DNA of 20,000 bases. Source: Psammoneis japonica. Lineage: Eukaryota. The notes under the pieces were generated by a model. That model worked only from the letters and a program-made list of their open reading frames with translations, was not told where the DNA came from and did no database searches. Numbering within the stretch: the first letter of the stretch is position 1; each line of letters begins with the position of its first letter. The stretch is taken from positions 50,471-70,470 of the forward strand of contig QPGO01000277.1 of NCBI GenBank assembly GCA_008632985.1, given 5' to 3'. This document shows positions 1 to 20,000 of this stretch, piece after piece. Made by a program: the position numbers and the translations under genes.

Positions 1-47
1 AGCCGGACCGCATCTGAGGATCGCAGATACCCCACGTTTTTGACACC

Positions 48-1196
48 ATGGCCGCCCGCCCGCTTGTTAGCGTGTTCTCCCTCTCGGGAGACAAGTCGGG
101 AGAGACGACTCTCCCCGCCGTCATGACGGCTCCCCTTCGTTCTGACATTGTTCAGTTTGTGCACACCAACATGAACAAGAACAAGCGTCAGGCATACGCT
201 GTTTCCATCTACGCCGGTAAGACGCCTTCTGCCTCTTCCTGGGGTACTGGACGTGCTGTCGCCCGTATCCCTCGTGTTGGTGGTGGAGGTACCTCCCGTT
301 CTGGACAGGGTGCTTTCGGTAACATGTGCCGTGGAGGTCGCATGTTTGCTCCCACCAAGACCTGGCGCAAGTGGCACCGCAAGATTAACACTACCCAGAA
401 GCGTTATGCGGTTGCTTCTGCTCTTGCCGCCACCGCTGTCCCTGCTCTTGTCATGGCTCGTGGACACGTTATCGACAATGTTCCTGAAATTCCTCTTGTC
501 GTTGACAACGGCGTCGAATCCACCAAGAAGACTTCCCAGGCCAAGGACATTCTTGCCGCTGTGGGTGCCCTCGATGATGTCGAAAAAGCTGCCAGCTCCA
601 AGCAGGTTCGTGCTGGTAAGGGTAAGATGCGTAACCGTCGTTACACGCTCCGTCGCGGACCGCTTGTTATCTACGCCAAGAATGATGGCGTCGAACAGGC
701 CTTCCGTAACTTGCCTGGTGTGGAACTATGCTGCGTGGAACGCTTGAACCTTTTGCAGCTTGCCCCCGGTGGACACATGGGACGCTTCTGCGTTTGGTCC
801 CAGGCTGCCCTCGACGCACTTGACACCATTTACGGAGAAGGCGGAAAGCGTATTCCTACGGCTGCCATGACAAACGCCGACCTTGCCCGTATCATCAATT
901 CGGACGAAATCCAGAGCGTGCTCAACCCTGCCAAACCTGGCCAGACCGTCTACGCTCCCAAGGCCAACCCTCTCCGCAACACGGAAGCTCTCGAGAAGCT
1001 TGATGCGTACGCCGCTGCGGCCCGTCGCACAGAGACTCTTGCCATGAAAGCCCGCTCCGAGAAGAAAGCAGAGATTCTTGCCAAGAAGCGTGGCATTCGC
1101 AAGGAGAGGAAGCAATACAAGGCTCAGGGTAAGGCTTTCTACGAACAGGCTTCCAAGCAAGGAAGTGTTTGTGAGGATGGTTTCGATATGGCGTAG
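48..1196 (+). CDS. RPL4: 60S ribosomal protein L4 (uL4), intronless
   Basis: Intact 382-aa ORF with uL4 signature motifs [40 protein letters not shown] and [13 protein letters not shown]. Confidence 0.98.
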
Positions 1197-1311
1197 GCTT
1201 TTTTCTCAAGTGTAATAAAAGCAGTTATCTTCCTACAAAACGTTTCCTCTAGAGTGTAGCTTAGGGCCCTGTGTGTTTCTCTAGGGTTAGGTGGCGGCTT
1301 CCATGTCTGAA

Positions 1312-2904
1312 TCAAGAGAATTGCATTCTGAAAGAGTTTCTAAAGTCGCGCTGGTGGAGGAAGAGGTTGGCTGTGAATTTTGTGCCTCTCGTTACAGGAA
1401 GAACCTCGTGATGCAACTTATTCTCTGCTTCATTGGGATCATTGTCCAAAACGTTTGCCCAAAGCACCGCCTTTCCTTTCTTTGGAGTAATTTTCTTTTT
1501 GTGGAGTACCCCAAAATGAGTTTCCCCGCCTTGAAAATCATCGTTGAGAAAGAACGTGAACGTCAAAATACGAACTCCACAGGGTCGCACCTTGTGAATC
1601 ACGTTGTAGTCGTGGTGAACACCATGTCGCTGACCCCTTTGATATCGGGATAGCTGAAGCGGCTCTGCGTGTTCTTTCGGCACACCCGTCAAATTCGCAA
1701 CACGATCAAGTAACCGTTGAATCACGGGGTCTTCTTCACAAGTATAGTCACACCAGCTACGGAATGGGGTGTTGTAGGAAGAAGCCCTGAACGAATAGGT
1801 TCCACCCACTTTGACTTCAATCGTCACTTCTTCAGATCGTCCATAGACGCGTCGCTCACCATGATACAGCATTCGTTCAATTTCGTCGTCGGAAAGAAAG
1901 TTGTCAAACGTAAGAAACCACGGTCCAGGATTCGATGTTGTTCCCTCTTTGTAGGGACGATAAAGAATTGATGGAGAGTACCCAGCGAAATCATCTCTCT
2001 CGATCATTGTCTCAAACAAATCAGTCAAGTCTCCCTTCTTCTTGAGAACATCAATTGCATTATTCGAATCCATTTCACATTGTTTTGCTACATCAACCAC
2101 ATTGCAACTGTGGCAGGCAGGGGCGCACAAAGGATTGTATTGCCGGGTTTCTGCAGTGACCTTGTGCCGCCCATATTGAACACATTTCATTTCCATTACG
2201 ACAAAGTTCTCGTGCCGCGGCGCTTCTTGGATCAGCCATTACCTGGCGCATATAATGTATGCTTTGATGAATTACAGCGGCCACCAACGTGTTGTTCTCG
2301 TCTTGTTTCTGTCGAACGCCAAAGTCGACCCTATTGTTTGAAGCAGAAAAGGAGTGAGCGCAGCCCAGAAACCCAATAAGCAATTCAGAAGATATTCATT
2401 AAGCTCACGTTTGACTAGTGCTGGACTTGCAGGCTTTACATGCTTTGGGACAGTTCGACAGCATGAAATAGGGGTTCCTTGCGCATTGATTCTGTCTTTC
2501 CCATGTTGCGCACTGAGCATGATTGTCAACGCAAGGCTCGGTAGAAACTGGTTCATTCCTACTCATTAACGAACGAAACAGTACCTTAGATGGAATATTG
2601 ATCGGTGACTCCAACATGAGACACGTATTACTTACGTTCTACATACAAAACAGCTTCTTGGGCATTTCTTGCTCATGAAATCAATGTTTACAACGCATTC
2701 TCCCTGATGCTCCCAAGCCGTACAACGGTCGTCCAAGTCTTTACACTCATCGGTGGTTCTCGAGGCGTCGGTAGAACTTGTGGAGCTCGACGGTTCATGC
2801 TCATCATGATGCAAGCATTTTCCGTCAATCGACACGCAATCGCCGAGAACTTGTGACGACAATGACGAAAAAACCAAAGGCACAAGAATCTGTTGGACCT
2901 TCAT
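1312..2904 (-). CDS. Secretory-pathway prolyl 4-hydroxylase (2OG-Fe(II) oxygenase) with three N-terminal ShKT domains; 3 exons, one apparent frameshift
   Basis: Signal peptide MKVQQILVPLVFSSLSSQVLG. Exons 2904-2636, 2558-2409 and 2330-1312, with phase-2 GT-AG introns 2635-2559 and 2408-2331. ShKT Cys patterns (CKDLDDRCTAW..GEC..CPRSCFVC; CVDNHAQCATW..CPKACKAC; CRNGNEMCSIW..CAPACHSC). Catalytic HHDY...GGETHF...HEVLPV..GTK motifs. One extra base near 2129-2131 shifts the frame inside the third ShKT. Confidence 0.88.
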
Positions 2905-3137
2905 CGCTGCTTCCAGTTTCGTCGCCCTTTAATATCTGCTGCACTTTACTCTGCAGTGCGTGAAGGACAGAAATTCTGCTCGACTACAGCATCAACCGTC
3001 ATTGCGTGTGTTGCTGAAGGAAGGCAGAAATCGGAAATCTTTCGGCGGATTTGACGTTACACAAATATTCAGAACTGAGGTTTTTGATACGATTTTAAAA
3101 AAATTCAATGATGGACTTGTTCGACTCGCTGGGACAA

Positions 3138-3149
3138 ACTGACGTCAGT
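3138..3149. promoter_or_regulatory. Palindromic CRE-type bZIP site ACTGACGTCAGT (TGACGT core) in the divergent P4H/NEET promoter
   Basis: Perfect 12-bp palindrome, with a second TGACGT at 3052-3057. TGACGT is the known aureochrome bZIP core. Function is inferred. Confidence 0.4.
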
Positions 3150-3315
3150 GATGGCAAAAAAATCCATCGAAACAAATCCGACATCGACGACCCATCGCAT
3201 CGATCAAATCCATCATCGCCATCTATCTTCCACCAACCAACTCCATAATTCTACGTTGCTGACTTGTCGCAGGTTGCAGAATACATCATAGTTTTAAGCC
3301 ACCATCAGACCAACC

Positions 3316-3612
3316 ATGAAGTCCTTTATCATTTCCGCTTTTCTTTTGTCGCAGGCAGCCGCCTTTACCTTTGTTTCTAGTCCCAGGGTTATTGAAACGA
3401 GGCTATTCGAGAAGGGAAAGATCAACGACAAGATTGACCTCGACAGCCCAAAGGTTGCTACCATGGAAACCCTTACTGGCAAGACCAAGAAGGTGTACTG
3501 CCGCTGCTGGGAGTCTGGAACCTTTCCGCTGTGTGATGGCTCGCACATGAAGCACAATGAAGCCACTGGTGATAACGTTGGGCCTCTTATCGTCACCGTC
3601 AAGGAGGAGTAG
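3316..3612 (+). CDS. CDGSH iron-sulfur (NEET-type) protein, plastid-targeted
   Basis: YCRCWESGTFPLCDGSHMKHN is the CDGSH 3Cys-1His [2Fe-2S] motif, followed by GDNVGPL. The N-terminal signal peptide ends AAA|FTF (ASAFAP-like) and is followed by a short transit peptide. Confidence 0.93.
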   Translation: MKSFIISAFLLSQAAAFTFVSSPRVIETRLFEKGKINDKIDLDSPKVATMETLTGKTKKVYCRCWESGTFPLCDGSHMKHNEATGDNVGPLIVTVKEE

Positions 3613-4251
3613 ATCTTCAAAGCTACGAAGATATTGTCGCTGAATGAGTCATTACTCAAGAATCAAAGACATGTTTTGCTTTTTATCTGAAGGAATTTCG
3701 ACGAACTAGAGAGCACTACCTAAATGCATACCCATTGAATCTTAAAGTTGTGTCTACAATGGATTCTATCAATGAAATCTAGAATGTTTCGTGAAAGAGT
3801 CACCCACGCTCCTTCCATACCGTTGACTCGTTCACAGCTGATCGTACATTGCATGGCATGATAGAGGAATGAGACCCTCAGAGTAGATTTGTGCGGATCT
3901 ATTGCTTTTCAGTTTTTTGAATTGATTTCGTTTTGGCTCGACCGAGAACTTTTTATATCGTCAAACGAACGATCTTCGATCACACAATCACGACTGATTT
4001 AGTGTTTGTCTGACTGAGAACTCCCAAGCAAGCAATGCATTATCCTGTTTTAAACAAGCAGCGTGAATGAACGCTCTCATTAAGTTTCGGCCTCGTTTGC
4101 AGATGTCGCAGGAACCCCTACTGTATCTCCAGTAGTAGTGAAACGGCAAGGAAATATTGGCTGGCAATGTTGTTGAGCTCCATCTTTATGCACGCCGCGA
4201 CACACCATAGACTACGAAACGAGCAAACTTAAACAAGATTGGAACGAAGAA

Positions 4252-4485
4252 CTAGTAGAACACATCTAGCTAGGACAAACACCAACTAGTAGTACCGGTA
4301 GTTGCTGGATACCATTTTACCTCACATTAGAAGCCCTACAAGAGAGTAGAAAAACTATATGAAACAAAGTACAGTGGGCTAGCTAGAATACAAGGATCAC
4401 TAGAGACAATGTAGGGCCTACAAGTGAATTGCGCATGATTCTACTAGAGCTACTAGTCTAGAGGTAGCCTCTCATCTCTAGCTAG
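4252..4485. repeat. CTAG/TAG-rich low-complexity intergenic tract
   Basis: 12 CTAG tetramers in 234 bp (4252, 4266, 4270, 4286, 4379, 4383, 4400, 4444, 4453, 4458, 4478, 4482), and only about 2 CpG. Confidence 0.75.
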
Positions 4486-4547
4486 AGTAGAGACCATCCT
4501 GAATCCGTGACTCCCATTCATGATGTGCTTCTTTTTGCCAAAACTGA

Positions 4548-4673
4548 GTCGTGATTAGCCATCTTCACGACTTAAAAATCTCTCATTTCAAGCGATTCAC
4601 GACCAAAGTTTTGTTCGAAATCGTTCCAAAATCGGAAATTCGCTAAATCGTGATCGATAATTGCCACGTGGCA
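4548..4673. promoter_or_regulatory. Motif cluster: 4x TCGTGA/TCACGA plus palindromic G-box TGCCACGTGGCA
   Basis: TCGTGA/TCACGA near 4549, 4565, 4597 and 4648. Perfect 12-bp palindrome at 4662-4673, about 110 bp upstream of the ATG at 4783. Confidence 0.45.
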
Positions 4674-4782
4674 GTCCCGTTTTCCCAAGTCCCACTTCTG
4701 TCTGACACTCTCTCTTTTTGTCATTTCGTTCTGTTCTCACAATTCAAGTCACAAGACGCAAAACAGAATACAGCAGCCTATC

Positions 4783-5094
4783 ATGTCTAAGGGAATCGCA
4801 AAAGCCATCGCTGAGACCGTTTGGGGAAAACCGGCGTTCAAACCGAAGGAGTTCATCGTGGTTGGAGTGGATCAAGAAGATGATGTTAACCGCTGGAACG
4901 ACGACGAAAAGCCGACTGCAGAAGAGCAATGGTATGGAGTCTCAAGCACAACCCAGCCCGAGGCAGTAAAACATGGCGAACGGGTCAATGCGGTCAAGGA
5001 GTTTACTGTCGTCTCTTCGAATTTTCAACCAACTGAAACCTGGGAAGAAGAAGTTCGCACTCCCAGCGAGTTATGGTACGGAGACTACAATTGA
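4783..5094 (+). CDS. Small acidic hypothetical protein with two internal KEFxVV...WYG repeats
   Basis: 103-aa ATG-initiated ORF with an internal repeat conserved at protein level (KEFIVV..W..T.EEQWYG / KEFTVV..W..TPSELWYG). Confidence 0.7.
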   Translation: MSKGIAKAIAETVWGKPAFKPKEFIVVGVDQEDDVNRWNDDEKPTAEEQWYGVSSTTQPEAVKHGERVNAVKEFTVVSSNFQPTETWEEEVRTPSELWYGDYN

Positions 5095-5275
5095 TTTGTG
5101 GCTTGAACTCAAGTAGATTGCGGTGGCATGCAATAGCCACCTTACACGCTAATGGAAAAATAAATAAAAGCTTTCTCAATCTTCTTTGTTTCTCATAGTA
5201 AGTAGTCTTACAAGGCTTTGGTGGTCTCAGCGCACGGTGCTGCAAAGCGAACCGCCGCAATGACTTAGATCTGGT

Positions 5276-7892
5276 CTAAATCGATGGACCGAGCATCAAC
5301 CCCACAGCGCTCTCTTGTTCCAATCGACTGAATCTCCCAAGCTGCGTCGAACGGATAGCTCCCACCGGTGTTTGAACCTCAGTAGGGCGGTCCAATTTCT
5401 TCCGCTCTGAATTTTCCCTGACAAATGCCCTTGTCAACCCTTTGCACAAGGCTTCTCTGTCGGGATCTTGTTCAGCCTCTTCCGTAATTCCCCATTCTCA
5501 TCGAATAACTTTCCAGTCATAATATCACCCTGCGTAAAACGTGACATGACAACATGGATTCCGTCCACATCAAAGGACGAATGGAACCTTTCGAACGAAT
5601 CTCCGTTTTGATGTCGGTCTTCATCTCGATGAAGAATCTGGATTGCCAGTTTCAGCAAGTCGTTGTACATGCACGGGTGTGCTAACGGAGCCACAACATC
5701 GCTGTCGTCTTCGTCGGCGGTTTCTTCCAAACACGCCACAATGTTGCGTGCCATTGCTTCATCACTTTTCTCTTCAAAAAAAGCGTGGGCCACATCAAAG
5801 ACGTGGATGAGCAACTTGACTTCTGGAATGCGCTTGGCAAACGATGAGTTGTCATCTTCACGAATGGATTCTACCATTTCTTTGGCAGCATCGTAGTCCC
5901 GGCCCATAGCCTCGGATACTTCCGTTTTCACCAAGCTCTTCAGGAGCGCTTGGGATGCCGTGACCAGGTACGTCGTCAAGAACCCCCCACAGACTCCTGA
6001 ACTTAGGACACGCTGCCAAGCACTCATGCTATCTCCCTCGTTGCTGGCGTAGACATACTTTTCAAACTCAATACCTTGCAACAGCCAATGAACTGCGCCA
6101 CCCGGTCGCTTGGCCTTGACATGATGACGGTATCGGGACAAGACCATACCAACACACCCGTCGAGTACATGAACACACTTGCGCTCCACCAGCTTTCGGC
6201 AATGATTCAACAAGCTTTTTGTTTCAACGTCCGTTTGTGGGGCGTACCGTTCCAATGTCTCTCCGAGGGTGGCCATGATTCGAACATCGCCACGGGGCGT
6301 TGCGTAGGGCAAAAGGATGCGGGTTGACAGAAGGATGGCCAAGTCAGCATAAGCAGGGTTGAGAGAGGACAAAATCGCTTCTGACGCAGACAGCAAGAGG
6401 TCCGTTTGGATGTTGGAAGAAGTATCGTCCGGAGGAGGCATGATGTTTGCTTCATTGAGCAGACTGGAGAGCAGCGCCGTCTGAAAAAGAAATGAGTAGT
6501 AGTGGCTGGGTGGTAAGCACGATGAAACTTCAATGTAGAATCAAGATAGAACAATGATGCAGAGTATCTTCTCACCAATGTTTCTGGCAAGGCGGCTCCA
6601 CTACCGCCTCCATAGGTATGAAGAGCTTGAATAACCTGACCGGCATTTCGTTGCATTACGTTCAGAACCAGGTTGTCAAAATCTTCCGCGGTATCTTCTC
6701 CGAATCCTAGGCTCCTGATGCGAGATGCCCGGACATGCATATCCTCGGGTCGGAGAGTGGGACGCAGGTACAGCAGTTCTGAACAGAGAGCTTCTCCCCA
6801 ACATGAAAAGTCAGCATTGTCAAACTCGCCACGCAAAATTTCGAGAATAGGCTGCAACTGCGGAACGCGTCTTGTCAATGCCGCAAGAGCTCTCGAACCA
6901 ATCAGGTAACGATGCCACGTACTATGAGCCTCCTTGGCAGCATGTGGATTGTAGCTGAGCGGCAAGTCGTCAACCGAACTGGAACTGTTGTTTTCCCACA
7001 GCTTGTACGCCGAAGGCGGCAATCCGTCCAGCACGGTTTCGTTTGATGATTCGTCCTCCACATCGCTGTTAAAACCTGTATCATTCTGATCACTTCGTCC
7101 TCCGGGGAGAGGGGCCGACTGCAAAATTGCTTGCAGTTCTCTGAAGCTTTCCCGGTCTTGTGCCAGTGTAGCTGCGTGATATTCATCCAAAACATCACTA
7201 CCAGCCATTGAAAAGGACCGTCGACAAAGTGAGTGGCGACTCAACAGGGACCAGGCGTCCTCGACACATCCGCGAAGAACAAGTATCTTGATCATGTCCC
7301 AGTATAAATCGAACTGTTCTGGCTGTGGCGATTGTAAGATCTCCTCCATGGCAGACTCATTGGTATTTGCCGCCTTGAACGCATCCTCCATATGATGGAG
7401 ACGCAGATAGCGTACCGTGTCGGCTGTTAGAGATCCTTGCATGGACATCATGTCTTCGAATTCTTCAGACGGCGGCGTTAGCAGATATACATCGGACACG
7501 TGCACAACAGCATAGGCGACCTTGAGGAGCTCCAAACTAGTCGGTCTGCCGTTTTCTTCGCCGTTGTTGGGTGCGTCGTCGGTAGAATCATCTTCTTCCC
7601 ATCCACTCAGACAGTCGGATATGATTTTTCGATAAGATTTACAGAGCTCTTTGATATTCTTCCATTGTCCTCGAGGCTTGGTTGCATAATAAGCTTCGTG
7701 TGCCTCCGCCAGCAGCATCAGAGCTCTCTGTTCATGCTTGTTGCATCCAGCACCATCGTCGGCGAGAAACGTGTCGAATTGTAACTCGCCACCACCCTCA
7801 GCGTTTATCACCAACAAGAGAGACGAGGGAGATTGAGGATCCCAAATCACGGGCCGCTGTGGTTGCGATCCAGATGAAGACGACGACGCCAT
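5276..7892 (-). CDS. NUP85: Nucleoporin Nup85; 2 exons, apparent frameshift near the C-terminus
   Basis: Exon 1 is 7892-6576, the GT-AG intron is 6575-6481, and exon 2 starts at 6480 in frame with ORF 5434..6441. Nup85-like segments YWDMIKILVLRGCVEDAWSLL, ILEILRG, WGEALCSELLYLRP and GGAVHWLL. A natural-looking C-terminus (REALCKGLTRAFVRENS...GPSI*, stop 5278-5276) lies in another frame, with the shift at about 5460-5520. Confidence 0.8.
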
Positions 7893-8077
7893 GGTGCACC
7901 TCTCTGTGGAAGGCGGCGGCAGAGCGCAAAAGATCTGCGTAGAAATCGTACTGAAGCTTTACGTAGGAAAGCAAAGCAATCGATCGTAGGCTCGCGCGCT
8001 CGTGAGACTCCATCGAAGGACGCAGGACGCGGCAGCACAACTAACAAAGCTCAAAGCCAAAGCGGAAAGCGGCGAGG

Positions 8078-8695
8078 ATGGCATCGATGTCGAAATGCGA
8101 AATTGAAAATGCATCCAATACGATCTCAATCGGAATGGCCACTCCCATCAACGAGTCTATGAGTTCATCGGAAATCACCTCCGTCAGCTTGGCTGTCAAA
8201 GCCACCAGCAGTCGTGCTGGAGACTTGACAATGCACCCGGAGGCGTTGGATTCCACTTCGCGATGCTCTTTTTTGCAGCCGCAGTCGCCGCTAACTTCGG
8301 AGCAGGAGCATTCCGTCACCTCCACTACGAGCAACGATTTAACTTCGTTGTTATCCGGTGAGGATTACTTCAAAGTCTCTCCTGCTTTTGTCGCGACGGA
8401 AACCCACAAAATGCTTTTGGACTGTGTTCGAAAGGGTAACAAGTGGCAGGAGGATTTGGAAATTGTTCAGGGTCTTACCGAGGCTGAATCCTGCGAGTGC
8501 TTCAGTGTTGCCGGAAAATATTTGCATTCCAATGTCTTTCCCGAGGGTGCTACGATCACAAAGCTCTTTCGTCACGCCAAAGCAGGGTGGGAACACCTTA
8601 GAAAGGTGGATGAACTCGCAAAGAAGTATCCGCAGGCGTTTGTCGACATAAATCGCCAAGCACTTGCGGAGGGAAAGCGAATGGGGGACTTTTAG
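8078..8695 (+). CDS. Hypothetical protein (Ser/Thr-rich N-half, globular-looking C-half)
   Basis: 205-aa ATG ORF, divergent from NUP85 and convergent with the next gene. No family recognised. Confidence 0.65.
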   Translation: MASMSKCEIENASNTISIGMATPINESMSSSEITSVSLAVKATSSRAGDLTMHPEALDSTSRCSFLQPQSPLTSEQEHSVTSTTSNDLTSLLSGEDYFKVSPAFVATETHKMLLDCVRKGNKWQEDLEIVQGLTEAESCECFSVAGKYLHSNVFPEGATITKLFRHAKAGWEHLRKVDELAKKYPQAFVDINRQALAEGKRMGDF

Positions 8696-8811
8696 TACGT
8701 GTACCAGGTATAAATTCGTGCTCTCACCGAGAAAACTGAGCGCACGGAAAAATAGGGGAGAATATTATCGAGTCTGTTGACAAATTGTAAACGTTCAAAG
8801 GATTATGCTGT

Positions 8812-10617
8812 CTATTTTGACGCGGTTTCCGAAATGGCAAACTTTAGCTCCGCAAGAAGCGCGCCAGATGCACCTAAAAACACACCAGAGAATGATTCGA
8901 CGTTTGTCGCGTTACCTGCCGGTGTTGCAGCATCTTGAATATCATCTTCAATCGACATTTCCACTTCTTCTGCAAGGTCCATGACTCCTAACCGGTTGCT
9001 CAGCTCTTGCAACAGATTTGCTTGGTCCCGCTCGTTGGCAGCTGATGACTCTGCAAAGCTGTAGTCAATCTCTGCCGCTCTGGCCGGCGCCTGCGACTTG
9101 GAACCTTTACCCGAAAACACAGCAGTTTTGTTTTTCAGAGTGTCAGAAGGCTGGAGTGGAATCGGTACATTCGATACTTGGTCATGACCCAAGTCTTCAT
9201 ACTGCGTCGGACAAACTTCCTTAGATACGTTGACCTCAGCCCTTGATTCTCTCTTGTTGCCTTTCCGCTTTTCGGTATCGATGCCGTCACTGTTAAACTT
9301 GGCAAGAACATCATCTCTTGCCAGCTGATGGATATCCATTGCATTTCCAACATGTTGACCAACTCGGCCGAACCACTCATGCATGTCGCCGGATTCTTCG
9401 TTTTTATCAGTATTACAAGCATCCTGAAATGCCCACAATGCAACGCGAGCTGCTTCTAGCTCCAAATGCATATTCTCCAAGTACTTGAAAACAATTCTAG
9501 ATTCCAATGTTTGCGGTTTCTTGGGTGCAGGTGAAAGGACGCTTTCAACATGCAGTTTCGTCTCTGCTGCCATCCACGCGGACTCTTCAAGTGCGGCTTC
9601 CAGAGTTGACACTATAGTCAAGCCATGCAATCCGATCGGGGAACCCAATATTGAAAGAACTTTGGACAGCACATCTTGAAGCTGTTTTCGAGATGAATTC
9701 AGCATGGATAGCGTGATTGTCGTTGGCTGTTTCTCATTTGAAATCGAGTCGTCAATGCTCTCGTCCAATCGTACCAGCAGCGATTCAAGAGATGAACGTT
9801 GCTCCACCATGGCGCGCCAAATCAAGGTTCTTGCGCGTTGAAACGTTACCGAGACCCTGACGGTAGCTTTTCCGTGGGTATCCTTGGTTCTGTGCTGGCG
9901 TCCCAGCGCTGCTCGTTCAACACGAGCAACGCAACGAGACGATGGTCCTAAACCAAGCTGTATTCCCGTTCCGACTCGAACAGTTTCCGCGGCGCGATCA
10001 AATGCGAGCAAGAGTTTTACGTGCGCCTGGGTGAACCCTATCACCCTCTCAGATTGTTCTTTTAAAGTGTTTTCATTGCATTGTTGCGACGTGAACGAGC
10101 TTCCGATATAATTTGAAGTAGTTTCGAGCAGAGTGGCTGACAGGGGAGGAGCTCCGACAGATCCCAATAAAGCAGACATTTGCGTCCGACATTGATGACT
10201 TTGCTTGCACAACATGTTTCGATAATCCGAAGAAATAGCAGCGTCCTTGCGTTTCGTTTTCGAATCGAAATACTTCCATACAAATAGTACAGCCAGACAC
10301 ACGGCCGCATATCGGATCCATCCATGCGGTTGGTAGCAAGAGGCATTTTCCAGTCTCTCGTAGTTTGAACAAAACCTTCCAATGATAAAACCTATCAAAC
10401 ATCCTGAAATCACAAGCACGTACATATTCAAAGTCGGCCGATTCCCAAACAACGCGTCCGTCGAGACAAGCGCTTTTTTGTCCTTCGGTTCTTTTTTTTG
10501 TGTGGTGGTACTAGCCACATGATGTTGTGTCTGGACACTAGTTTTGTGCAAAAAATCATGTCGTTCGTCACCATGATCGTAAAGGTGTTGCTCCAACTGA
10601 GGATTCAAACCTAACAT
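8812..10617 (-). CDS. Two-TM membrane protein, vezatin-like
   Basis: About 600-aa uninterrupted ORF. Two hydrophobic helices (YVLVISGCLIGFIIG; YAAVCLAVLFVW), an N-terminal NPQLEQHLYDHG segment, a helical middle, and C-terminal LLQEL/LLAELK. The vezatin call is from remembered architecture only. First ATG is at 10617. Confidence 0.6.
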   Translation of the reverse strand: MLGLNPQLEQHLYDHGDERHDFLHKTSVQTQHHVASTTTQKKEPKDKKALVSTDALFGNRPTLNMYVLVISGCLIGFIIGRFCSNYERLENASCYQPHGWIRYAAVCLAVLFVWKYFDSKTKRKDAAISSDYRNMLCKQSHQCRTQMSALLGSVGAPPLSATLLETTSNYIGSSFTSQQCNENTLKEQSERVIGFTQAHVKLLLAFDRAAETVRVGTGIQLGLGPSSRCVARVERAALGRQHRTKDTHGKATVRVSVTFQRARTLIWRAMVEQRSSLESLLVRLDESIDDSISNEKQPTTITLSMLNSSRKQLQDVLSKVLSILGSPIGLHGLTIVSTLEAALEESAWMAAETKLHVESVLSPAPKKPQTLESRIVFKYLENMHLELEAARVALWAFQDACNTDKNEESGDMHEWFGRVGQHVGNAMDIHQLARDDVLAKFNSDGIDTEKRKGNKRESRAEVNVSKEVCPTQYEDLGHDQVSNVPIPLQPSDTLKNKTAVFSGKGSKSQAPARAAEIDYSFAESSAANERDQANLLQELSNRLGVMDLAEEVEMSIEDDIQDAATPAGNATNVESFSGVFLGASGALLAELKFAISETASK

Positions 10618-10857
10618 CACCCGAAGCTCAATAACACGGCCTCTGTTACCTCATGGTGATCATACCATAGAGGCAAACTGAGCGATGAGCGATGAAAGCA
10701 AAACGGAATAAAAAATGGAAAACGGCATCATTTTCGCGATTTCCCGGTCGACACACGGTCGGCGGGATTATGCGCGCGCGCGCGAGATTGACGACTCACT
10801 CGAGCTGGACAGAGCAGTCGAAGAAGTCGTCATGAAGATCTGACGAAAAAATCTTGG

Positions 10858-11005
10858 CAGCGTCCTCATTTTCAATTTGCCTTTCCACCATGGGCAATCC
10901 GCTCCGCGGCCTGCGAGTGTTGGATCTTTCCCAGCGTCCTCATTTTCAATTTGCCTTTCCACCATGGGCACTCCGCTCCGCGGCCTGCGAGTGTTGGATC
11001 TCTCC
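10858..11005 (+). repeat. 74-bp direct tandem duplication spanning the CoA-transferase start codon
   Basis: Copy 1 is 10858-10931 and copy 2 is 10932-11005, with 2 mismatches (gggcAatcc vs gggcActcc region; gatctTtcc vs gatctCtcc). Confidence 0.95.
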
Positions 11006-12222
11006 CGTGTATTAGCAGGACCATGGTGCACCATGCTCCTTGGAGACGCTGGTGCTGACGTTATCAAGCTTGAACGAACCAAAACTGGAGATGAAACGAG
11101 AAATTGGGGACCACCGTTTGTCAACGGCGACGTTTCAACGTACTTTTTAAGTGTCAATCGAAACAAGAGTTCAATCGCGGTAGACATTAAAACAACGGAA
11201 GGATTGGATCTATGCCGTCGTCTTGCAACAGAGTGGGCGGATGTACTTGTCGAGAATTTCAAGGTTGGAACAATGGAGCGACTGGGTCTCAGCTATGAAA
11301 CATTGAGGCAGGAGAATCCAGGTCTCGTTTATTGCAGTATTACTGGGTTCGGAAGCACGGGACCACTGAGCAGTCGACCAGGATACGATGTCATCATCAG
11401 TGGGATGTACGGTCTCATGTCAATCACAGGAGAAGAGCATGGAGATCCCGCCAAGGTGGGAGTTGCCATTACAGACGTGGTGGCGGGTACTCTGGCGCAC
11501 GGAGGTATTCTTGCAGCCTTATATCAACGAAACCGGACCGGACGCGGTCAACAAGTGGAAACATCACTCATGGAGACGCAACTCGCCTCCTTGGTCAACA
11601 TTGCCTCCAGCTCACTCAATAGTCCAGAGGGAACGCCGCCTCCACAACGATGGGGTACCGCACACGAGTCCATTGTGCCTTACCAAACTTTTCCATGCAA
11701 GCACGACGACGGTGAGGAAAAGCAATACGTGGTTGTTGGAGCTGGAAATGATTTACAGTTTAAAAAATTGTGCAACGCCATGGGCATGGATGAGGTGGCA
11801 AGTAGCGATCGATTTAGAACAAACGCGGATAGGGTGAAAAATCGCAACGAGCTTGTTGCTGTGCTAGAAAAGAGATTTCTTCAAAAGACACGAAATGAAT
11901 GGGTAGACTTGTTGAGTGACAAGGGTTTCCCGATTGGACCCGTTCGATCCGTTCCTGAGGCGTTTGAATGCGAACAGGCCATTCATCGTGGCATAGTGAC
12001 AGAGATGAACCATGTTGTTGCGGGAAGATCAAGTTGCCAAGGACTCCCATTTTGTACGTGGGCGAGTCAACAGACAATTTGGATAAACCAAAACCACCTC
12101 CCATGCTTGGAGAACATACCGAGGAGATCCTCACCAACGTTCTAGATATGACTCCTGGGGAGGTTCGAGCATTAGAACGAGCCGGGGTGATCGAGTGTTG
12201 GCGGCAACAAGAGCCAAAGTAG
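10964..12222 (+). CDS. Family III CoA-transferase (CaiB/BaiF, SUGCT-like); frameshift near 12022-12026, possibly a young pseudogene
   Basis: PLRGLRVLDLSRVLAGP, NRNKSS, ADVLVENF, YCSITGFG, GYD and the catalytic-Asp region GVAITD. The family C-terminus PPPMLGEHTEEIL...GVI continues in a second frame to the stop at 12220-12222. Confidence 0.9.
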
Positions 12223-12431
12223 CATGTTCAATGTGCGTGCCACCATGTTATTCTAAGCGGTTTGATCCTTTTGAAGAATGCGAAATTGATGTTGTACACA
12301 AGGCAAACGGGGGGCGCCCTTTGTTCCACGCCCCGTATAATCATTTCTCGCGTTGGAGTTGTCGTATCTTTGTGCATCCGGACAAGCAGAGTCGACTAGA
12401 CCCAAGGGTAGTATAGTCTGATGTGAAAAAA

Positions 12432-13450
12432 TATGTTGTTTGTGCAATATCCGAGAATCTTGACAAGGAAACACGCGTCACGTCGCTAGATGCCGGATCT
12501 CCAACATCGTTGCTCATTACAAAGCAAGAAAACGGACAAGTGCACGCAGAGACGCGTGCCTAACTCGAACTATTGCAGCATGACGAAGTACTCTTGAAAC
12601 AAGGAAGACGAAGCTCGCAGCTAGTAAAGAAAGTTTTATCACTTCGCACGCAGAAACAGGGTGCAGAGAATCCCATTGACGCCGACAGGAACCGACGGCG
12701 TCATAAAAAACACAGGTCTACATCTCGGCACAATCGAAATTTCAATACAACACCATTCGACCGAGAACCATCTCATCATGATTTGCTGGATAATTCAGAC
12801 GACGACGGCGAAGACATTCCACCTAGCGGACACATGGCTGGTCCATGTAGCACTTTGATCCAAGAGCGTATTTCGACAGAACCAACGGCGCCGCACTCCT
12901 TCAGCGAATTACACCATCTGATACCTGCGACACGTTGGAAGAATACATTCTCCTTTCATCTGCCCATGCAATTCCGCTCTATAAGCGATTGTGCCTTGGC
13001 TCTTAATGCAAACCTTGCCAAAAATTTCATCCAGCTCAACGTCAATGCCGGTGGAAGCAACCGAATGAACATTTGCGATCGTCGTAACTACACTTAGAGC
13101 TTCTTGCAAATGCCAAGACTGGTAAACTGCCCAACTCACTCTTATATGCAACATGACTTAGGTTGGCAGTCGGTTACTGTGAACCAATCTCATGGCGCCA
13201 CCAATGCGAATGGAAACAATCAGTACTCAGTTCGATCTCGTCGATACCTTCTTGGGGCGACGAAGATTTTTTATGTAATACAATCATGGAGCATCTCGTT
13301 GCACTACCCAATGTCGAGGAAATGCTATCAAGGTCACCATCCCAATCCATGGAAACATGGAAAGAACAGGGTTAAACTCAAGAAACTCCTCGTGTGGTGA
13401 GCAAAGGGATCTCTGCTCCAACATGCATCAAGAGTATTCTTGCGGCCAGG
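12432..13450 (+). pseudogene. MSH4: Degenerate MutS-family gene, MSH4-like (N-terminal/core portion only)
   Basis: Pieces across frames: VCAISENLDKETRVTSLDAGSP..KQENGQVHAETRA*LELLQHDEVLL; RAYFDRTNGAALLQRI..EEYILLSSAHA; RMNICDRR..LELLANAKTGK; VGSRLL*TNLMAPP..ETISTQFDLVDTFL; EHLVALPNVEEMLS; SKGISAPTCIKSIL. Stops at 12561, 13004 and 13180, plus several frameshifts. No ATPase domain seen. Confidence 0.78.
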
Positions 13451-13628
13451 TGTGTGCTCTTTCTCAAATTTTACAGCTTCCTTGTTGGCCTAGTCATTGA
13501 AGAGACTCTCATCTTTGCCTGCATCGTCTTGTTCAAACCATTAACTCATACTGCAAGCAGCGACCTGATCACCAGTCCGCCTCGATAGAGCTTAACACAC
13601 AGAGCTAGCCGTACGGTAGCAGCAAGGT

Positions 13629-13904
13629 CTACTGGATCGGATGATCTGTCCGTAAGCTTCCCTTCTTCTTCCAGGATGGAAAAGATGGAGGAGGATCATC
13701 GTTCCGGGCTTTGAAGTGGCCGGCTTCTTCAAATAGTTTGTCAAACATGTTCAAGTGCGTTCTTGATATAACCATGTCGCAAAAGATGGTTGGTGCCAAC
13801 GCCAAAAAAGCACCGAGAAAGTACGAAAAGATGGTTCTGAATCGTGAAATGTCGAAAGTAGGGCGACGTCAAGAAAGTGGTCCTTATTCCCTCTTTTTGG
13901 TCAT
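13629..13904 (-). pseudogene. Possible 5' remnant of a type II membrane protein gene
   Basis: ATG at 13904 reads MTKKRE*GPLS*RRPTFDISRFRTIFSYFLGAFLALAPTIFC..., i.e. a basic N-terminus then one hydrophobic stretch, with two early stops. Confidence 0.25.
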
Positions 13905-14328
13905 TAGATAGGGTCTGCGGGAAATCGCGGATTGAGGCGAAAAACGCAAAAAATCTATAGCAGAAATATTAGAAGCAGTGTGATAACACATTGCATCTAG
14001 CAGTAGCACCGGTACGATTTCAGCCTAGAGATTACGAACTGTGCTGTTTTACAAAAAGAGAACAGTGCCCAGGCCTTTATAGAAATACTCATCATTGCTT
14101 TTGAGGTTGCCTTGCGCACTATCATGTTCTCAGAATCGGAAACTGCGGCATGTCGTGAAAGCCGTCGAGTCCCTGCGCCGTCGCCCGAGCATTGGTGCTG
14201 TGCCAGGCTTGACACCTTCAACTGGTGGATACCAATTTGCTATGGATGGCACCAACTTTGGTTCACTATCTATTCGCAGGGCTAGAATAAAGAAAAGTGA
14301 TGTTTCTAAAGAAAATTGTCCTATCTAA

Positions 14329-15277
14329 TTATAGATCCTTGTAATCTACATTAAAAAGCGGTTCACCATTTTGAATCGCAAGCTGTGTTATGACAGCTAC
14401 AGCCCGAAATACATCGGCATGCTTCGATAGCGGTTTGTGGCGAAACCTTTTCTCCAGAATTGTCCAATTTTTGAAGCGTTCGTTGCACGTCTCCTGTCGA
14501 TTAAGAGCACGCCTCTGCATTTCTTCCATCTCCTTCGGGTTTGCAAAACTGCTGGGGCACTTAACATAGATGGGGGACTCACCCACGTACCCATCGTCAG
14601 CCTCTACGCGTTCCCCCTTGTCCAGTTCCGTCTTCAATGCCGATCGAAAAATGTCTAAGTCGTTGTACACGCCGGGCGCAAAGGGCCCATTAATCCACAC
14701 AATGTGACCGGTCAAAATGCATGCTGCTGCTTCGTAACGAAGTCCGCAGTCGTTGAATTTATGAGAGTAAAACTTCCTGCCGTGATTCGGGACACGAAAG
14801 TCTGTTCCGTCCACAGTAACTAGACAATCGTTTCCGACGTCACCAGTGCGGCGATTCTCCCAAATCATCTGGGCAGAACAAACAACAACACAAACAATGC
14901 GGGTGAGAATCAATTTTTTGAAACATGTGGAAATGTTGTCGCAATTGGGCACTTGCCAAGTGTGGCTCGAGTGATGCAATAGCCTCAATCATTGGCCACT
15001 TCCACGTTCGGAAAGTTTTTTCGTCGACTCCCCCAGCTTTGCCGGCAAGGTCAGTTTCCTTGCCATCAGATTTCAAAAAATTAAGTGCCCACAGCATGTG
15101 GCAGGCATTTGCTCCGTGGGGCAGCACGTCGTGGTGGACGAGGAGGTTCCACAGCGCGAGAGCCACGATTGGGCCGCAACCAAAAAACTCACGAAAACGC
15201 CTGTCCTCGGTCATTGTGGCGCCAAACTTCTTGTTGCCTCCATTCATCATTCCACGCCCCAAATTCATGAGGTCCTG
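14329..15277 (-). mobile_element. PIF/Harbinger-like DDE transposase gene (DDE_Tnp_4-like), 2 exons, 5' end abutted by an LTR
   Basis: Exon 1 (15277-14957): RRFREFFG..HMLWALNFLK..GVDEKTFRTW. Phase-0 intron 14956-14869 with GCAAGT donor and CAG acceptor. Exon 2 (14868-14329) carries an intact triad VTVDGTDF / VEADDGY / RQETCNERFKNW plus YSHKF..GLRYE. Confidence 0.88.
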
Positions 15278-15662
15278 TGCAGCGTGCGACTGTTGCACAC
15301 ACATTTATGATTACATGTTATTTGTGTGTCAATCGCACCACAGTCGTGGATGCGCACAAAGGACAGAACGATCACACAGAGTTGATCGGATGTCGAGAAT
15401 TGCAAATACGATCGATTGACGATGTTGACATCTTACGTGTCAACAGCAATCGCATCCGGACAATCTGTTGTCACGAATGTATTCTCCGAAAGGCCTTTTG
15501 TCTGTAGAAGCAGTGCAGAAGCTTTAGGCCATTGAGAACTCGTTCGGAGAAACCAAAAATCACAGAGCAAAATTTAATCTCATAATTTCCACTTTTCGTG
15601 CACCATTCTACTTTCGTTTACACTCGTTCTTCGAGCACAGTGCATTGTGCATGCACACCACA
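15278..15662 (+). repeat. 5' LTR (about 385 bp, TG...CA)
   Basis: 15278-15637 aligns without gaps to 19641-20000 (25 mismatches in 360 bp). The end at 15662 is inferred from the terminal CA and a degenerate inverted repeat. Confidence 0.88.
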
Positions 15663-15789
15663 GAAGGTAAAAAGCACGGAAAATGAAAATTTCAACTAAT
15701 GTGCCTTTGCAAATTCTTCTATAAACAGGAACGAATCGCATCAGTTCTGCTGGAATCGATTTCCGAGCGGAAGAAGCTCAAGCCGAGCA

Positions 15790-18700
15790 GTGCCTCAAGA
15801 TGGAACGCTGTTTTTCGTCTGCCAGACAAGAGGATTCGCTCCAATGCGGTCTGTTCCAAGCACCCAAGGATCAAGGGCTCTCAAGTACACCGCATTGTCA
15901 AAAAATCTACACCAAGTCATGGTTGCAGAGAATGCAAGTTCCGAGTCGATCAGGTCCGAGAAATGCGTCTGGCATGCAAGGAGAGACTGTTGGAGAGTTT
16001 TTGCAGACCGAATCAACGAGCCTCGAGTCCAAGAGCAAGATGGAACAGTTGGAAAGTACCTCAAGCGTCTCACAACTCATGCCCTCCGAGGAAATGCACT
16101 TCAGAATCAGGGAAATTATTTTCGAGACGACCTGAAGAAACCAGAGCCGCTCAACAGCAAGAAAGCCTCTGACAGACCCAAGAGGTCAACGAGGAGAGTC
16201 TACACGACTCTCAGATGGATTCTAAGTCGAATCTAGCGGGAAACCGAGCGCTGATTTATCAGCTGTCACTCGCACCGCAAGGATGGCAGCATCAGCCCAC
16301 TGTCCAAAATGTTGAACTGCTGGATCATGCCCTTGACGAGCTGATTGAGGTTTGAGTCGTCTAGAGGTCGGCAAGGACGTCTGTGACAAAAAAACACATC
16401 AATTCGGGCTCTGACAGCGCAGTTGATTCCACAATCAAAAAGGTTCCAATTTTGGTTCCAAAAATGGTCTCCTGCATGGTGCCAGAACAATCCAAAGTGA
16501 ATGCAAGGTCTTGTCTTTGAAAAAAGAACACCTGCATCACGGATTGAAGCTGTTCTAAAAATGAACTGTCAAAAGAGTGCAAGGGTGACTCTGAAAGAGA
16601 CCCAAAAATGCGCCGTTCAAATGGCAATCGCACGCGGTCGCGTCGCGACAACGAAAATGCCGCTCGCAAAAAAAGAGATGAACGTCATGATTGATCAGGC
16701 GGTTCAAAAAAATGCTCAAAGCGAGTTCCTTGAACAAAGAAAAAGAGCATGAGGGCAAAGAATCAGATTCTGGTGCCCTCAGTGAAGAAAAATGCCAATT
16801 TGATCGGATGATCCAGACTGAATCCGAAGAACAATGTTGGTCCATTCACAAATTGCATGCTTTGCTGGACATCAGGAAGCCTAGAAAAAAGGCAGAAATA
16901 ATTCACACCAGTCCAGGAGTCATCATTTATGTGAATGCTTCCTTGGGAAAGGAGAGAAAAAAAAAAGCATCTGCGTGTTCCTGTCGACAACGGAACATCG
17001 TCAACCACAATTTTGCGCAAATTCGTGCGAAAGTTGAGAACACAAGAATCCGCCACCAAAAACTTGGGAAACCAAGGGTGAGCTCTTTACGACTGATGGT
17101 AAACACCAAATTCAGTTCTCACTGTGCAAAATTTAAGGCACGCTGATGTTCAAACAGCACATGTTGAAAACACCAAATTTTCTTCAGGTTCAAATGACAT
17201 GATCATGGGACGCGACTCAATGTCCAGTCCCTGCAAGTCACATTGGACTACGCAAATGAAGAAATCTAATGGGAAGAAGCAATTGCCTTATGAAGAATGT
17301 TCATGCGCTCTTCGATGCCGATGTTTTCAAGCTGAAAACCGATCACATTGAAAAATGTGACGCCGTGAACAGAGTCAATGACGGAACCAATGGCCCTCGA
17401 CTCACATTGTCGCGCCATCGATCTTAATCAAGTGACAACTGCGGCGATGCATCTAACCCAAATGAACACAACCAACTCAATCTTCTTCTTGAGAGGTTGA
17501 AATTGTTTTGAAAAGTTCCTCAGACAAATGCATGGGAAGCATCAGTGGATCTCATCGTGGAAAATCTGACGCGATTCCACGACGCGTGAGAACCTTCTCC
17601 TGTCACAGTCTTTGGAGGCGTCCAATCAAAAGGAGTTTGACCCATTGTGAAAGATTGAAGTCTCAAGAATGAAGTTGCTCTGAATGAGTCGCTCTGAGAC
17701 ACATTGTCCAAAGAAAACAGGTCGAGTTCGACCGCACCCGACACTCAGAAGCTCAGCATGAGGTTCACACAGGTGGTGTGTCCTTTGCCCAACATTCAGG
17801 AAATGCTGTTGAAGCAAGAACGTTTCACACATGCAATCCATTTGATTCAAACATGGAATGCCACCATGTCAAATAAAAAAAGCACACGTCGTGCTCACAC
17901 GAAAATCATGCCGTGGGGAGAAAATGAGCACTGTGGACTTCCAATGAGAATCTGTGGAGCCCCAGATGTTTTTGCACAACACTTGAGTGAACTCACAACA
18001 GGTTTGAAGTTGTCAGAACGACTGTGTGTGATCGTTTGTGCCTGACAAAAGTAACTTCAAAATGTCGCCTGTGCAAGTGACAGCTTAATGCGGCATTCAA
18101 ACGACTGGAACAGTCGCTTGGAAGGTCAACAACAAAAGTCCTTCACTGTTTAACTTGAAATAAACTATCAAGACTTCCATGCGCAACGACATGCAATCGA
18201 TTGCAAAGAAAATGGAGGCGATTCAAGCAATCGCAACACGAGAAAAACGCAAAGAACACTGCGACATCTCGTTGTCATACGTTGCTGTTGTCGAGACATG
18301 CAGTCTCAACGATCTCCTGTACAATGCCAGCCAAATTCACCTCAACAAAGGTCAAACGGCAAAAGCACAAGTACGGAACAAAAAGTCTCCGAAAATGTGG
18401 AGCGCATCAAATCAAAAACCACATTGTCATCATGCACGGATTTCAACATCACACGTTACAACAGAAAAAAAGAACTTCTGTCCACAGTGAAAACACTCAC
18501 AAAATTCCGAAACATGCTGTTTGGCCAACAGATTTGTGCATGTGCGGATCACAAGACACAACGGACAAAGTCATGCGTTGACAACTTCAGTCCCGAATTA
18601 GAATGCAACGAGGGCAAGGCGAACATCGTCGCGACAGACGCGATCAGCCGACTTGCCACAGAAAATTGAATCCTACGACAATGTCCTGCCGTTAAAACGG

Positions 18701-19620
18701 GGTGAAGACATTCCCTCCAAATTGTCGGACGCGACATGTCATACGAACACTTTTCGTGGAGGCGAGCGAGATCGAAAAATGCTCATGTCACAAGGACAAA
18801 ATCGCCTTTTTAAAGGATGATTTAGGAAAAAACAGTGACAGATTGGTGCACATTATACGCGTCCACTTCACACTGGCAAAAGACAATCTCACAACACCCG
18901 CACGGTTGTGTTGTACAATGTACGAGGCAAGACATTAAAATGTGCATCATGTCGACACATGAGATGTGCCAAAGATCTAGAAAAAGAAAAGAAAAATGGA
19001 CATTTGTCCACTTGGTGCACAAAACCAGTGCCTTCGGAATGACAAAACAACACCGGCATGTCAGAAAGAAACGTCCAAACAACGATTAAAATCCAACTGA
19101 TAGATGGTTGAAGTGCAAAAAAAAAAATCCACAATGGAATTCACAACCATCACAGGATTGATTGTCAAGACGAAATGGTCACAATGTCTTTGACCATCGT
19201 TTGTCATTGCTTGTGAAACGTGGCAGTGCAGCAGAGCAATGTGGCACACAAAGTGAGCCCGCCAAACTGCATGAAATCCACAAGTGAGCAAGTGAACACC
19301 ACAATTGAGAGCGTGCATTAAGCACTGGGCACGATGCCATGTACAATCGATGTCAGGAAAAACACTTGCTCCAGGACAATTAGTCCTTGTGTTCATGTCA
19401 ACAAGAACGTCAATGAGAATGCTCGACGCAATGCTGTGTGTGTGCACATTAAGTGAGAAACAAACAATGTCACTCTCAAAAGACATTCGGAAATTGGAAC
19501 GGCCCCATGTTGCCCATGCAAAACAACAACAGTCATTGCCAATGGCACAATGCAGTGAAAGTGGAGACATCATTGACACTGTCGATGTCCGTCGAACAAT
19601 CCACTTGCAAATGACTCCAA
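15790..19620 (+). pseudogene. Fragmented gag-pol
   Basis: Gag-like ALQNQGNYFRDDLKKP. Protease LRVPVDNGTSSTTI (16971-17012) and DMIMGRDS (17196-17219). RT CPLPNIQEML..FTHA..DSNMECHHV..PWG..LPM..PDVF (17779-17975). RNase H ELLSTV..FRNMLFG..CADHK..GKANIVATDAISRL (about 18470-18655). Integrase NPQ..IESVH*ALGTM and PGQLV (about 19270-19390). Many stops and frameshifts. Confidence 0.9.
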
Positions 19621-19629
19621 TGTGCAATT

Positions 19630-19640
19630 AGGGAGGCGAA
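19630..19640 (+). other. Polypurine tract
   Basis: AGGGAGGCGAA immediately 5' of the TG start of the 3' LTR. Confidence 0.8.
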
Positions 19641-20000
19641 TGCAGCACGCGACTGTTGTGCACATGTTTGTGATTGTGTGTCATTCATGTGTCAATCGCA
19701 CCACAGTCGTGGATGCGCACAAAGGACAGAACGATCACACAGAGTTGATCGGATGTCGAGAATTGCAGGTGCGATCGATTGACGATGTTGACATCTTGCG
19801 TGTCAACAGCAATCGCATCCGGACAATCTGTTGTCACGAACATGTTCTCCGAAAGGCCTTTTGTCTGTAGAAGCAGTGCAGAAGCTTTGGGCCATTGAGA
19901 ACTCGTTCGGAGAAACCAAAAATCACAGAGCAAAATTTAATCTCATAATTTCCACTTTTCGCACACTGTTCTACTTTCGTTTACACTCGTTCTTCGAGCA
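19641..20000 (+). repeat. 3' LTR (truncated by the window end)
   Basis: About 93% identical to 15278-15637, with no indels. Confidence 0.93.

Follow-up and report, generated by a model that had tools for sequence, protein, structure and literature searches.

Within a diatom transposase gene, the dinucleotide TpA is almost erased from one part and kept in the adjoining part, and the locus raises the question of what removed it and why the loss stops inside an exon. The whole 20,000-nt stretch that we analysed (hereafter, the window) is diatom nuclear DNA. It carries a uL4 ribosomal protein gene at 48-1193, whose product is 79-82% identical to listed diatom proteins (Nitzschia, Cyclotella, Conticribra, Cylindrotheca, Mayamaea and others); the best full-length match has 89% identity, and one shorter partial match has 90%. 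Our analysis indicates that the TpA-poor tract is likely to be the left end of a block that reaches the end of the window (20000), and that this block was hit by a DNA-level conversion of TpA to TpG and CpA after the integration of an LTR element. The features of the locus are as follows:

14329..14868, minus strand: exon 2 of a PIF/Harbinger-type transposase, 179 codons plus the stop codon (14329-14331); Pfam DDE_Tnp_4
14869..14956, minus strand: transposase intron of 88 nt with a GCAAGT donor and a CAG acceptor, placed where the spliced homologues P0013, P0017 and P0024 have their join
14957..15277, minus strand: remnant of transposase exon 1, 107 codons (321 nt), aligned with 14 full-length homologues
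14823..15277, no strand: TpA-erased tract within the DNA transposon, 2 TA in 455 nt
15278..15637, plus strand: 5′ LTR of the retroelement, a direct repeat of at least 360 nt that begins with TG; 12 TA left
15638..19640, plus strand: internal part of the LTR element, 54 TA in about 4 kb (observed/expected 0.19); its first bases may belong to the LTR
19641..20000, plus strand: 3′ LTR, the direct repeat partner, ending at the window end; 5 TA left

The transposase ORF (14329-14988) matches the Pfam family DDE_Tnp_4 (PF13359) with E=8e-07 and 29.2 bits (cut-off 24.8); the exon 1 remnant has no family of its own in the Pfam scan. Among its 472 homologues, the best is 64% identical, and the four with organism names are all diatoms. 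Residues D20, D23, D91 and E126 of exon 2 are invariant in an alignment of 33 sequences that includes the window. The insertion of the LTR element at 15277/15278 removed the N-terminal 25-50 codons of the transposase. Exon 1 is in frame with an ATG at 15304 that lies within the LTR, antisense to the element; the result is a chimeric ORF of nine LTR-derived codons plus the exon. Since the 3′ LTR runs past the end of the window, the remaining 5′ part of the Harbinger element is out of view. No inverted repeats of 30 nt or longer were found in 13000-20000, the Harbinger 5′ end lying beyond the LTR element and off the window. We also searched for a second Harbinger gene or an end of the element, and 0 of the 36 ORFs of 12200-14328 matched the 80 loci of our set of relatives; blastn of 13000-15277 against the same loci gave only matches of 66-84% identity over 49-326 nt.

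The neighbouring element has the terminal features of an LTR retrotransposon. Its direct repeats, the LTRs, begin with TG at 15278 and 19641, extend over at least 360 nt and are 93% identical, and a purine tract, AGGGAGGCGAA, is located at 19630-19640, directly before the 3′ LTR. The 3′ limit of the 5′ LTR is undefined because its partner leaves the window. None of the 35 distinct ORFs of the element exceeded the Pfam threshold, the only hit being RT_RNaseH (E=0.0063, 17.1 bits, cut-off 24.8); the copy is either decayed or non-autonomous. Long overlapping ORFs occur in several phases throughout 14823-20000. As TA to TG or CA changes never create in-frame stops and destroy TAA and TAG, these ORFs are an outcome of the TpA loss and are not genes.

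The original prediction described a drop from about twenty TpA to about two, and recounting gave exactly these numbers: 20 in 14341-14822 (482 nt) and 2 in 14823-15277 (455 nt; Fisher test, p = 1.2e-4). The observed/expected ratio of TpA falls from 0.63 to 0.07 between two segments of similar G+C content (0.485 and 0.51). None of the 14,368 segments of 455 nt within 1-14822 contains two or fewer TA (minimum 5, mean 16.3), and neither does any of 20,000 mononucleotide shuffles (mean 27.3); the Poisson probability of two or fewer ranges from 2e-5 to 4e-7, according to the reference rate used. The exon 2 tyrosine codons that had been said to be kept (in FYSHK, LRYE and DDGY) are all present as TAC.

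Left of the edge, TA last occurs at 14817 and 14821; to the right it reappears at 14980 and 15082 and, within the LTR, at 15306. When two rates are fitted over 13000-15277, the best change-point is 14822 (2-lnL support interval 14769-14871). The sharp edge proposed near 14.82 kb is therefore bracketed by the last TA (14821) and by the first putatively converted site (14866-14868). That the edge lies inside the gene holds; that it lies at an exon border does not, as it falls about 46 nt inside exon 2, whose junction with the intron is at 14868/14869. The TpA-poor part thus comprises the exon 1 remnant, the whole 88-nt intron and approximately the first 46 nt of exon 2 (14823-14868). Because the first readable converted codon is 14868-14866, the edge is most likely located between 14822 and 14866, in exon 2. 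It is not an assembly join, since a contig from sequencing run X2 (below) spans it without any difference over 14596-14869. The five TA closest to the edge (14735-14821) are in contexts partly or fully resistant to the process, and the edge may be slightly softer than the raw counts indicate; the chance that all five would have survived inside the block is about 0.01, calculated as the product of block-wide survival ratios.

We compared the transposase segment with its relatives in 80 metagenomic loci, of which L058 and L072 were dropped, their match starting at the contig end, and nine lacked enough flank, leaving 69. The ratio of TA density in the equivalent 455 nt to that in the next 482 nt has a median of 1.09 and a minimum of 0.32 among these relatives, compared with 0.106 in the window. 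Intact copies equally TpA-poor in exon 1 and the intron would have spoken against the original reading; none of the 69 has a ratio of 0.15 or less, which favours that reading. On the sense strand, the relatives' segments contain on average 19.9 TA, 39.3 TG and 29.3 CA (sum 88.5 ± 9.3), and the window segment contains 2, 49 and 33 (sum 84). TA is thus down by about 18 and TG plus CA up by about 14 with an unchanged sum, which indicates that the TA loss is a conversion to TG and CA. The intron has no TA, 10 TG (observed/expected 2.12) and 11 CA (1.97). ApT is undepleted, with observed/expected values of 0.95 versus 0.93, which speaks against 6mA at ApT as the target.

Three sites of the tract can be read as individual TA to CA or TG changes by comparison with homologous sequences. 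The intron donor, GCAAGT, is one TA>CA step from the usual GTAAGT; exon 2 opens with ATG (Met, 14868-14866) in place of the Ile found in 14 of 14 full-length homologues; and at 15241-15239 a GGA codon preceded by T stands in place of the Arg of 12 of 13 homologues (a change from AGA to GGA would be TA>TG). Conversions elsewhere in the flank would follow from the composition together with these three sites, the closest relative being 63-67% identical in protein. For polarisation at the protein level, we used the 14 homologues with at least 290 residues among the 120 listed, all of which are at most 64% identical to the window. Two mismatches at strongly conserved columns fit TA>TG, and one does not: at 15067-15065 the window reads GAT (Asp) in place of the sole exon 1 tyrosine that is invariant, being shared by 14 of 14 homologues. 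This is a T>G change, by which a TA is lost but which is not of the TA>CA/TG type, and it counts against the process at that codon. The TpA-normal part also has one change that fits the process, Val to Ala (GCA). Across the relatives, the invariant tyrosine columns hold 209 Tyr, 5 His, 2 Cys, 2 Thr and 1 Lys. His and Cys are ordinary transition products of Tyr codons, hence their excess among the replacements is indecisive.

Two of the metagenomic relatives show abruptly ending TpA-poor tracts of their own. In L048, a tract (1453-2629) has 9 TA in 1177 nt between TA-dense flanks, and this copy carries Cys at the nearly invariant tyrosine of DDGY. In L001, the first 820 nt (1-820) contain 7 TA and the next 870 contain 44. 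Both may be mutated copies in other diatoms.

The timing of the process and its specificity can be read from the LTR pair. The two LTRs differ at 25 of 360 positions, and all 25 differences are transitions: 21 are at TA, TG or CA sites, two are A>G changes beside a TA and two fit CpG decay. Grouped by dinucleotide, the differing places form 18 sites, of which 14 had an ancestral TpA. At seven of these, the 5′ LTR has TA and the 3′ LTR has TG or CA, with no case of TA in the 3′ LTR only; at the other seven, one LTR has CA and the other TG, i.e., both copies changed, on opposite strands. Five TA survive in both LTRs. Consequently, of the 19 visible TpA sites, 7 (37%) were changed in the 5′ LTR and 14 in the 3′ LTR (sign test, p = 0.016), and the 21 of 38 changed TpA site-copies contrast with 4 differing positions among 174 other A/T (Fisher p = 1e-20). 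The events yielded 13 TG and 8 CA, so that both strands were struck. As the LTRs are identical at integration and are now set apart by transitions that are mostly at ancestral TpA, the block was subject to a process that converts TA to TG or CA in DNA, that is specific to transitions at TpA, and that acted after integration of the LTR element.

The process also depends on the following base. T or C follows the changed A in 17 of the 21 oriented events, ATAT falls from 35 occurrences in the reference part to none in the block, and TTAA is undepleted (density ratio 1.38); the preferred site is thus TA followed by a pyrimidine (TAY). The block is not evenly worn: the 5′ LTR keeps 12 TA in 360 nt versus 2 in the 455 nt of the adjoining flank (Fisher p = 0.002), and this unevenness speaks against a simple uniform domain. 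Roughly 90% of the TA expected in the flank is gone, compared with 37% in the 5′ LTR since its insertion, which implies either that a mutating block over the flank predates the LTR element or that the rate varies strongly within the block.

Two sequencing runs of the same sample, X1 and X2, give a view of other copies; the reading of X2 as DNA is a guess. Three X2 contigs (14596-14869, 14984-15189 and 14440-14621) have no difference from the window. X1 contigs differ from the window at 648 places, of which 547 are transitions, and none of the best 40 of the 667 read differences falls in 14300-15440. Summed over contigs, X1 depth is approximately 35,000-51,000 in the LTRs, 7,700-16,500 inside the element and 200-800 in the flank. 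The high LTR depth suggests a highly repeated LTR family with many solo LTRs. At several LTR positions, both LTRs of the window share CA or TG where many other copies have TA, which indicates that part of the erosion of the element was inherited from its source copy. On the other side of the edge, X1 contigs differ from the window in 14014-14297 at nine substitution sites and by a 1-nt gap at 14184. At five of these sites the window has TA and the contigs have CA or TG, and at one more dinucleotide the window has CA and the contig TG. As other copies carry CA or TG at five window TA sites left of the edge, the left part is not immune to the process; this, like the probable transcription of the gene remnant (below), is also at odds with one evenly affected domain. 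Up to three contigs overlap at 14014, and 14014-14297 is probably repeated.

For the mechanism, we propose that the process changes A:T to G:C at 5′-TA on either strand. It acts by position, irrespective of element class and coding status, covering the LTR retroelement, 321 nt of Harbinger exon, the intron and about 46 nt of the next exon before it stops. In chemical terms, an enzyme would deaminate DNA adenine to hypoxanthine, which is then read as G at replication. TadA/ADAT-like enzymes act on A following U or T, and for this reason a deaminase of this type would be a natural candidate; such an enzyme has likewise been proposed for the chlorarachniophyte Bigelowiella natans (see below). Since TA is its own complement, an attack on T would also be compatible with the sequence. 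The enzyme would be directed to silenced mobile DNA and would reach a few hundred bases into neighbouring sequence. As for the edge, it could correspond to a chromatin or small-RNA mark extending about 0.45 kb past the element, in keeping with the chromatin domain of the original prediction, or it could have arisen from a transcription-linked tract or from a recombinant of eroded and uneroded copies.

In the recombinant version, the edge would be the crossover of a recombination or gene-conversion event that joined the 5′ part of an eroded Harbinger copy to the 3′ part of an uneroded one. The family is multi-copy, with X1 copies at 82% and 89% identity spanning 14505-14917 and 14579-14865, respectively, its copies differ in TpA state, and the uneven wear of the 5′ LTR and the flank would fit a mosaic history. 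However, no donor copy was seen among these sequences, and the tract adjoins a similar block that covers the whole LTR element, so that position is the simpler account. Moreover, a junction of this kind would still presuppose a donor eroded by the same TpA process, and we consider this origin of the edge unlikely.

The transcription-linked version supposes a leftward transcript starting near the LTR edge that exposes its first 450 nt or so as single strand, in an R-loop, to a deaminase. AID acts in an analogous manner at the 5′ ends of immunoglobulin genes. An X2 contig ends its match at 14869 and continues with nine letters identical to 14958-14966, i.e., it has a spliced junction that lacks the 88-nt intron. 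Probably, then, the truncated transposase gene is transcribed and its GC-AG intron spliced out, although the contig could alternatively derive from a processed copy. Transcription of the gene remnant, together with the in-frame ATG at 15304 within the LTR, would favour a transcript of this kind. The same can be said of the gain on the sense strand (TG +10 versus CA +4, relative to the relatives' means), of the TG excess on the sense strand of the LTR element (observed/expected 1.67, versus 1.36 for CA), and of the nearest relative, L001, which is TpA-poor only in its 5′ 820 nt. Nevertheless, 8 of the 69 relatives have as many TG, which places the strand excess within their spread, and the LTRs were struck on both strands. 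The start of the transcript is seen in no read, X2 being without cover over 15249-15455, and the principal target in B. natans is a transcriptionally silent region. Overall, a tract set by transcription appears improbable.

If, instead, exon 1 and the intron of this lineage were naturally TpA-poor through codon usage or selection, the pattern would be ordinary composition. Two of the 69 relatives (L001 and L048) do have only 3 TA in the equivalent segment, and the whole window is generally TpA-poor (observed/expected 0.44). This explanation is very improbable: the median relative has about 19 TA in the segment and none has the two-half contrast of the window, an 88-nt intron with no TA and twice the expected TG and CA does not reflect codon usage, and L048, with Cys at its nearly invariant tyrosine, may itself be a mutated copy. 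Weakest of all is a change at the RNA level, i.e., A-to-I editing of ADAR or ADAT type fixed by reverse transcription, for which a retroelement as neighbour and the resemblance of A-to-G changes with a 5′ U/T preference to the products of known RNA deaminases could be cited, but which is extremely unlikely because the flank is a class II element located upstream of the 5′ LTR and outside any LTR transcript, the sequence ahead of the 3′ LTR is unrelated to the flank, the intron is as affected as the exons, and the LTRs diverged from one another after integration.

The proposed conversion of DNA after integration, which we prefer, agrees with the earlier view that the process is one of DNA and neither a reverse-transcription error nor RNA editing: a class II element and its intron are affected, and the LTR copies parted after integration. 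That a cut-and-paste transposon and its intron are hit like the neighbouring retroelement means that the process needs no RNA or reverse-transcription step. Similarly, as the tract ends mid-exon over a distance of about 45 nt, its limit is positional and is not set by a sequence unit.

The only published description that we found of the same signature is a 2026 preprint on B. natans (Mettrop et al., bioRxiv 10.64898/2026.01.13.699255), and the diatom would add a new host group. TpA hypermutation is described there in two integrated viral regions, of giant-virus and virophage origin; the mutations, which arise in mutation-accumulation lines, are nearly all A>G or T>C, always affect TpA and occur at rates far exceeding background. 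DDE endonuclease and reverse-transcriptase domains are over-represented among the TpA-poor coding sequences, the main target is transcriptionally silent, the regions affected include a single-copy one, and an ADAT2-like DNA adenine deaminase is proposed (bioRxiv 10.64898/2026.01.13.699255). The diatom block shares with it A:T to G:C transitions on TpA, giving TpG or CpA by strand, and the restriction to foreign or mobile DNA. In contrast, the mutations of B. natans were seen arising anew, whereas the diatom tract is known from its footprint, and the targets there are viral inserts of 186 kb and 25 kb, whereas here they are a multi-copy LTR element of about 4.7 kb and 455 nt of a Harbinger element with the edge inside an exon. 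The hosts also differ, being a chlorarachniophyte and a diatom, and that text does not mention diatoms, nor does the part consulted mention the preference for a pyrimidine after the A that we observed. The regional excess found here (14823-20000 against 1-14822, where 0 of 14,368 segments were as poor) is a relative measure, and the LTR pair is very young.

Clustered transitions of deaminase type with a fixed neighbouring base are also a property of APOBEC3, ADAR and AID. APOBEC and AID change C, not A, and ADAR, an enzyme of animals, works on RNA with a preference for G after the A. Enzymes of this group are used against retroelements, and AID acts on the 5′ part of a transcribed gene. Unlike the changes made by these enzymes, those of the block arose in already integrated DNA, at TA preceding T or C.

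RIP, which is known from Neurospora and other fungi, changes C:G to T:A mainly at CpA, thereby creating TpA, and needs duplication and a sexual cycle. It resembles the process described here in its dense, dinucleotide-specific transitions that disable mobile DNA, and in regional tracts that are able to enter neighbouring sequence. Its direction is the opposite, and the observed/expected TpA of 0.07-0.19 with raised TG and CA rules it out. In the part consulted of a paper on diatom DNA methyltransferases (PMC9998398), RIP appears only as a role of the fungal relatives of DNMT4. Our literature search, which covered few subscription journals, found no report of TpA hypermutation in diatoms.

An enzyme, if one is responsible, would represent a natural DNA adenine deaminase that prefers TA(Y), of relevance to protist genome defence and to base editing. 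A broader reading, which we put forward as tentative and rather less than even in its chances, is that diatoms have an enzymatic genome-defence system that deaminates DNA adenine at 5′-TA(Y), is active in the vegetative lineage and is guided by position, i.e., to silenced mobile DNA plus about 0.5 kb (two to three nucleosomes), rather than by repetition or element class. If so, the edge of the Harbinger tract would be a footprint of where the guiding mark ends. A major algal group would then possess a naturally occurring editor of DNA adenine with sequence specificity, which a rhizarian alga would share through common descent or convergence.

In the LTR pair, 7% of the positions differ although ordinary divergence is essentially nil, which indicates that LTR-based dating is unreliable in genomes of this type. 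Annotation by protein profiles fails as well, as seen in the 4 kb of the element with no Pfam match above the threshold. We also observed a parallel decay of CpG. At 15283-15286, the two LTRs have CGTG and CACG, which fits an ancestral CGCG, and 7 of the best 40 of the 667 read differences pair TG or CA in the window with CG in other copies.
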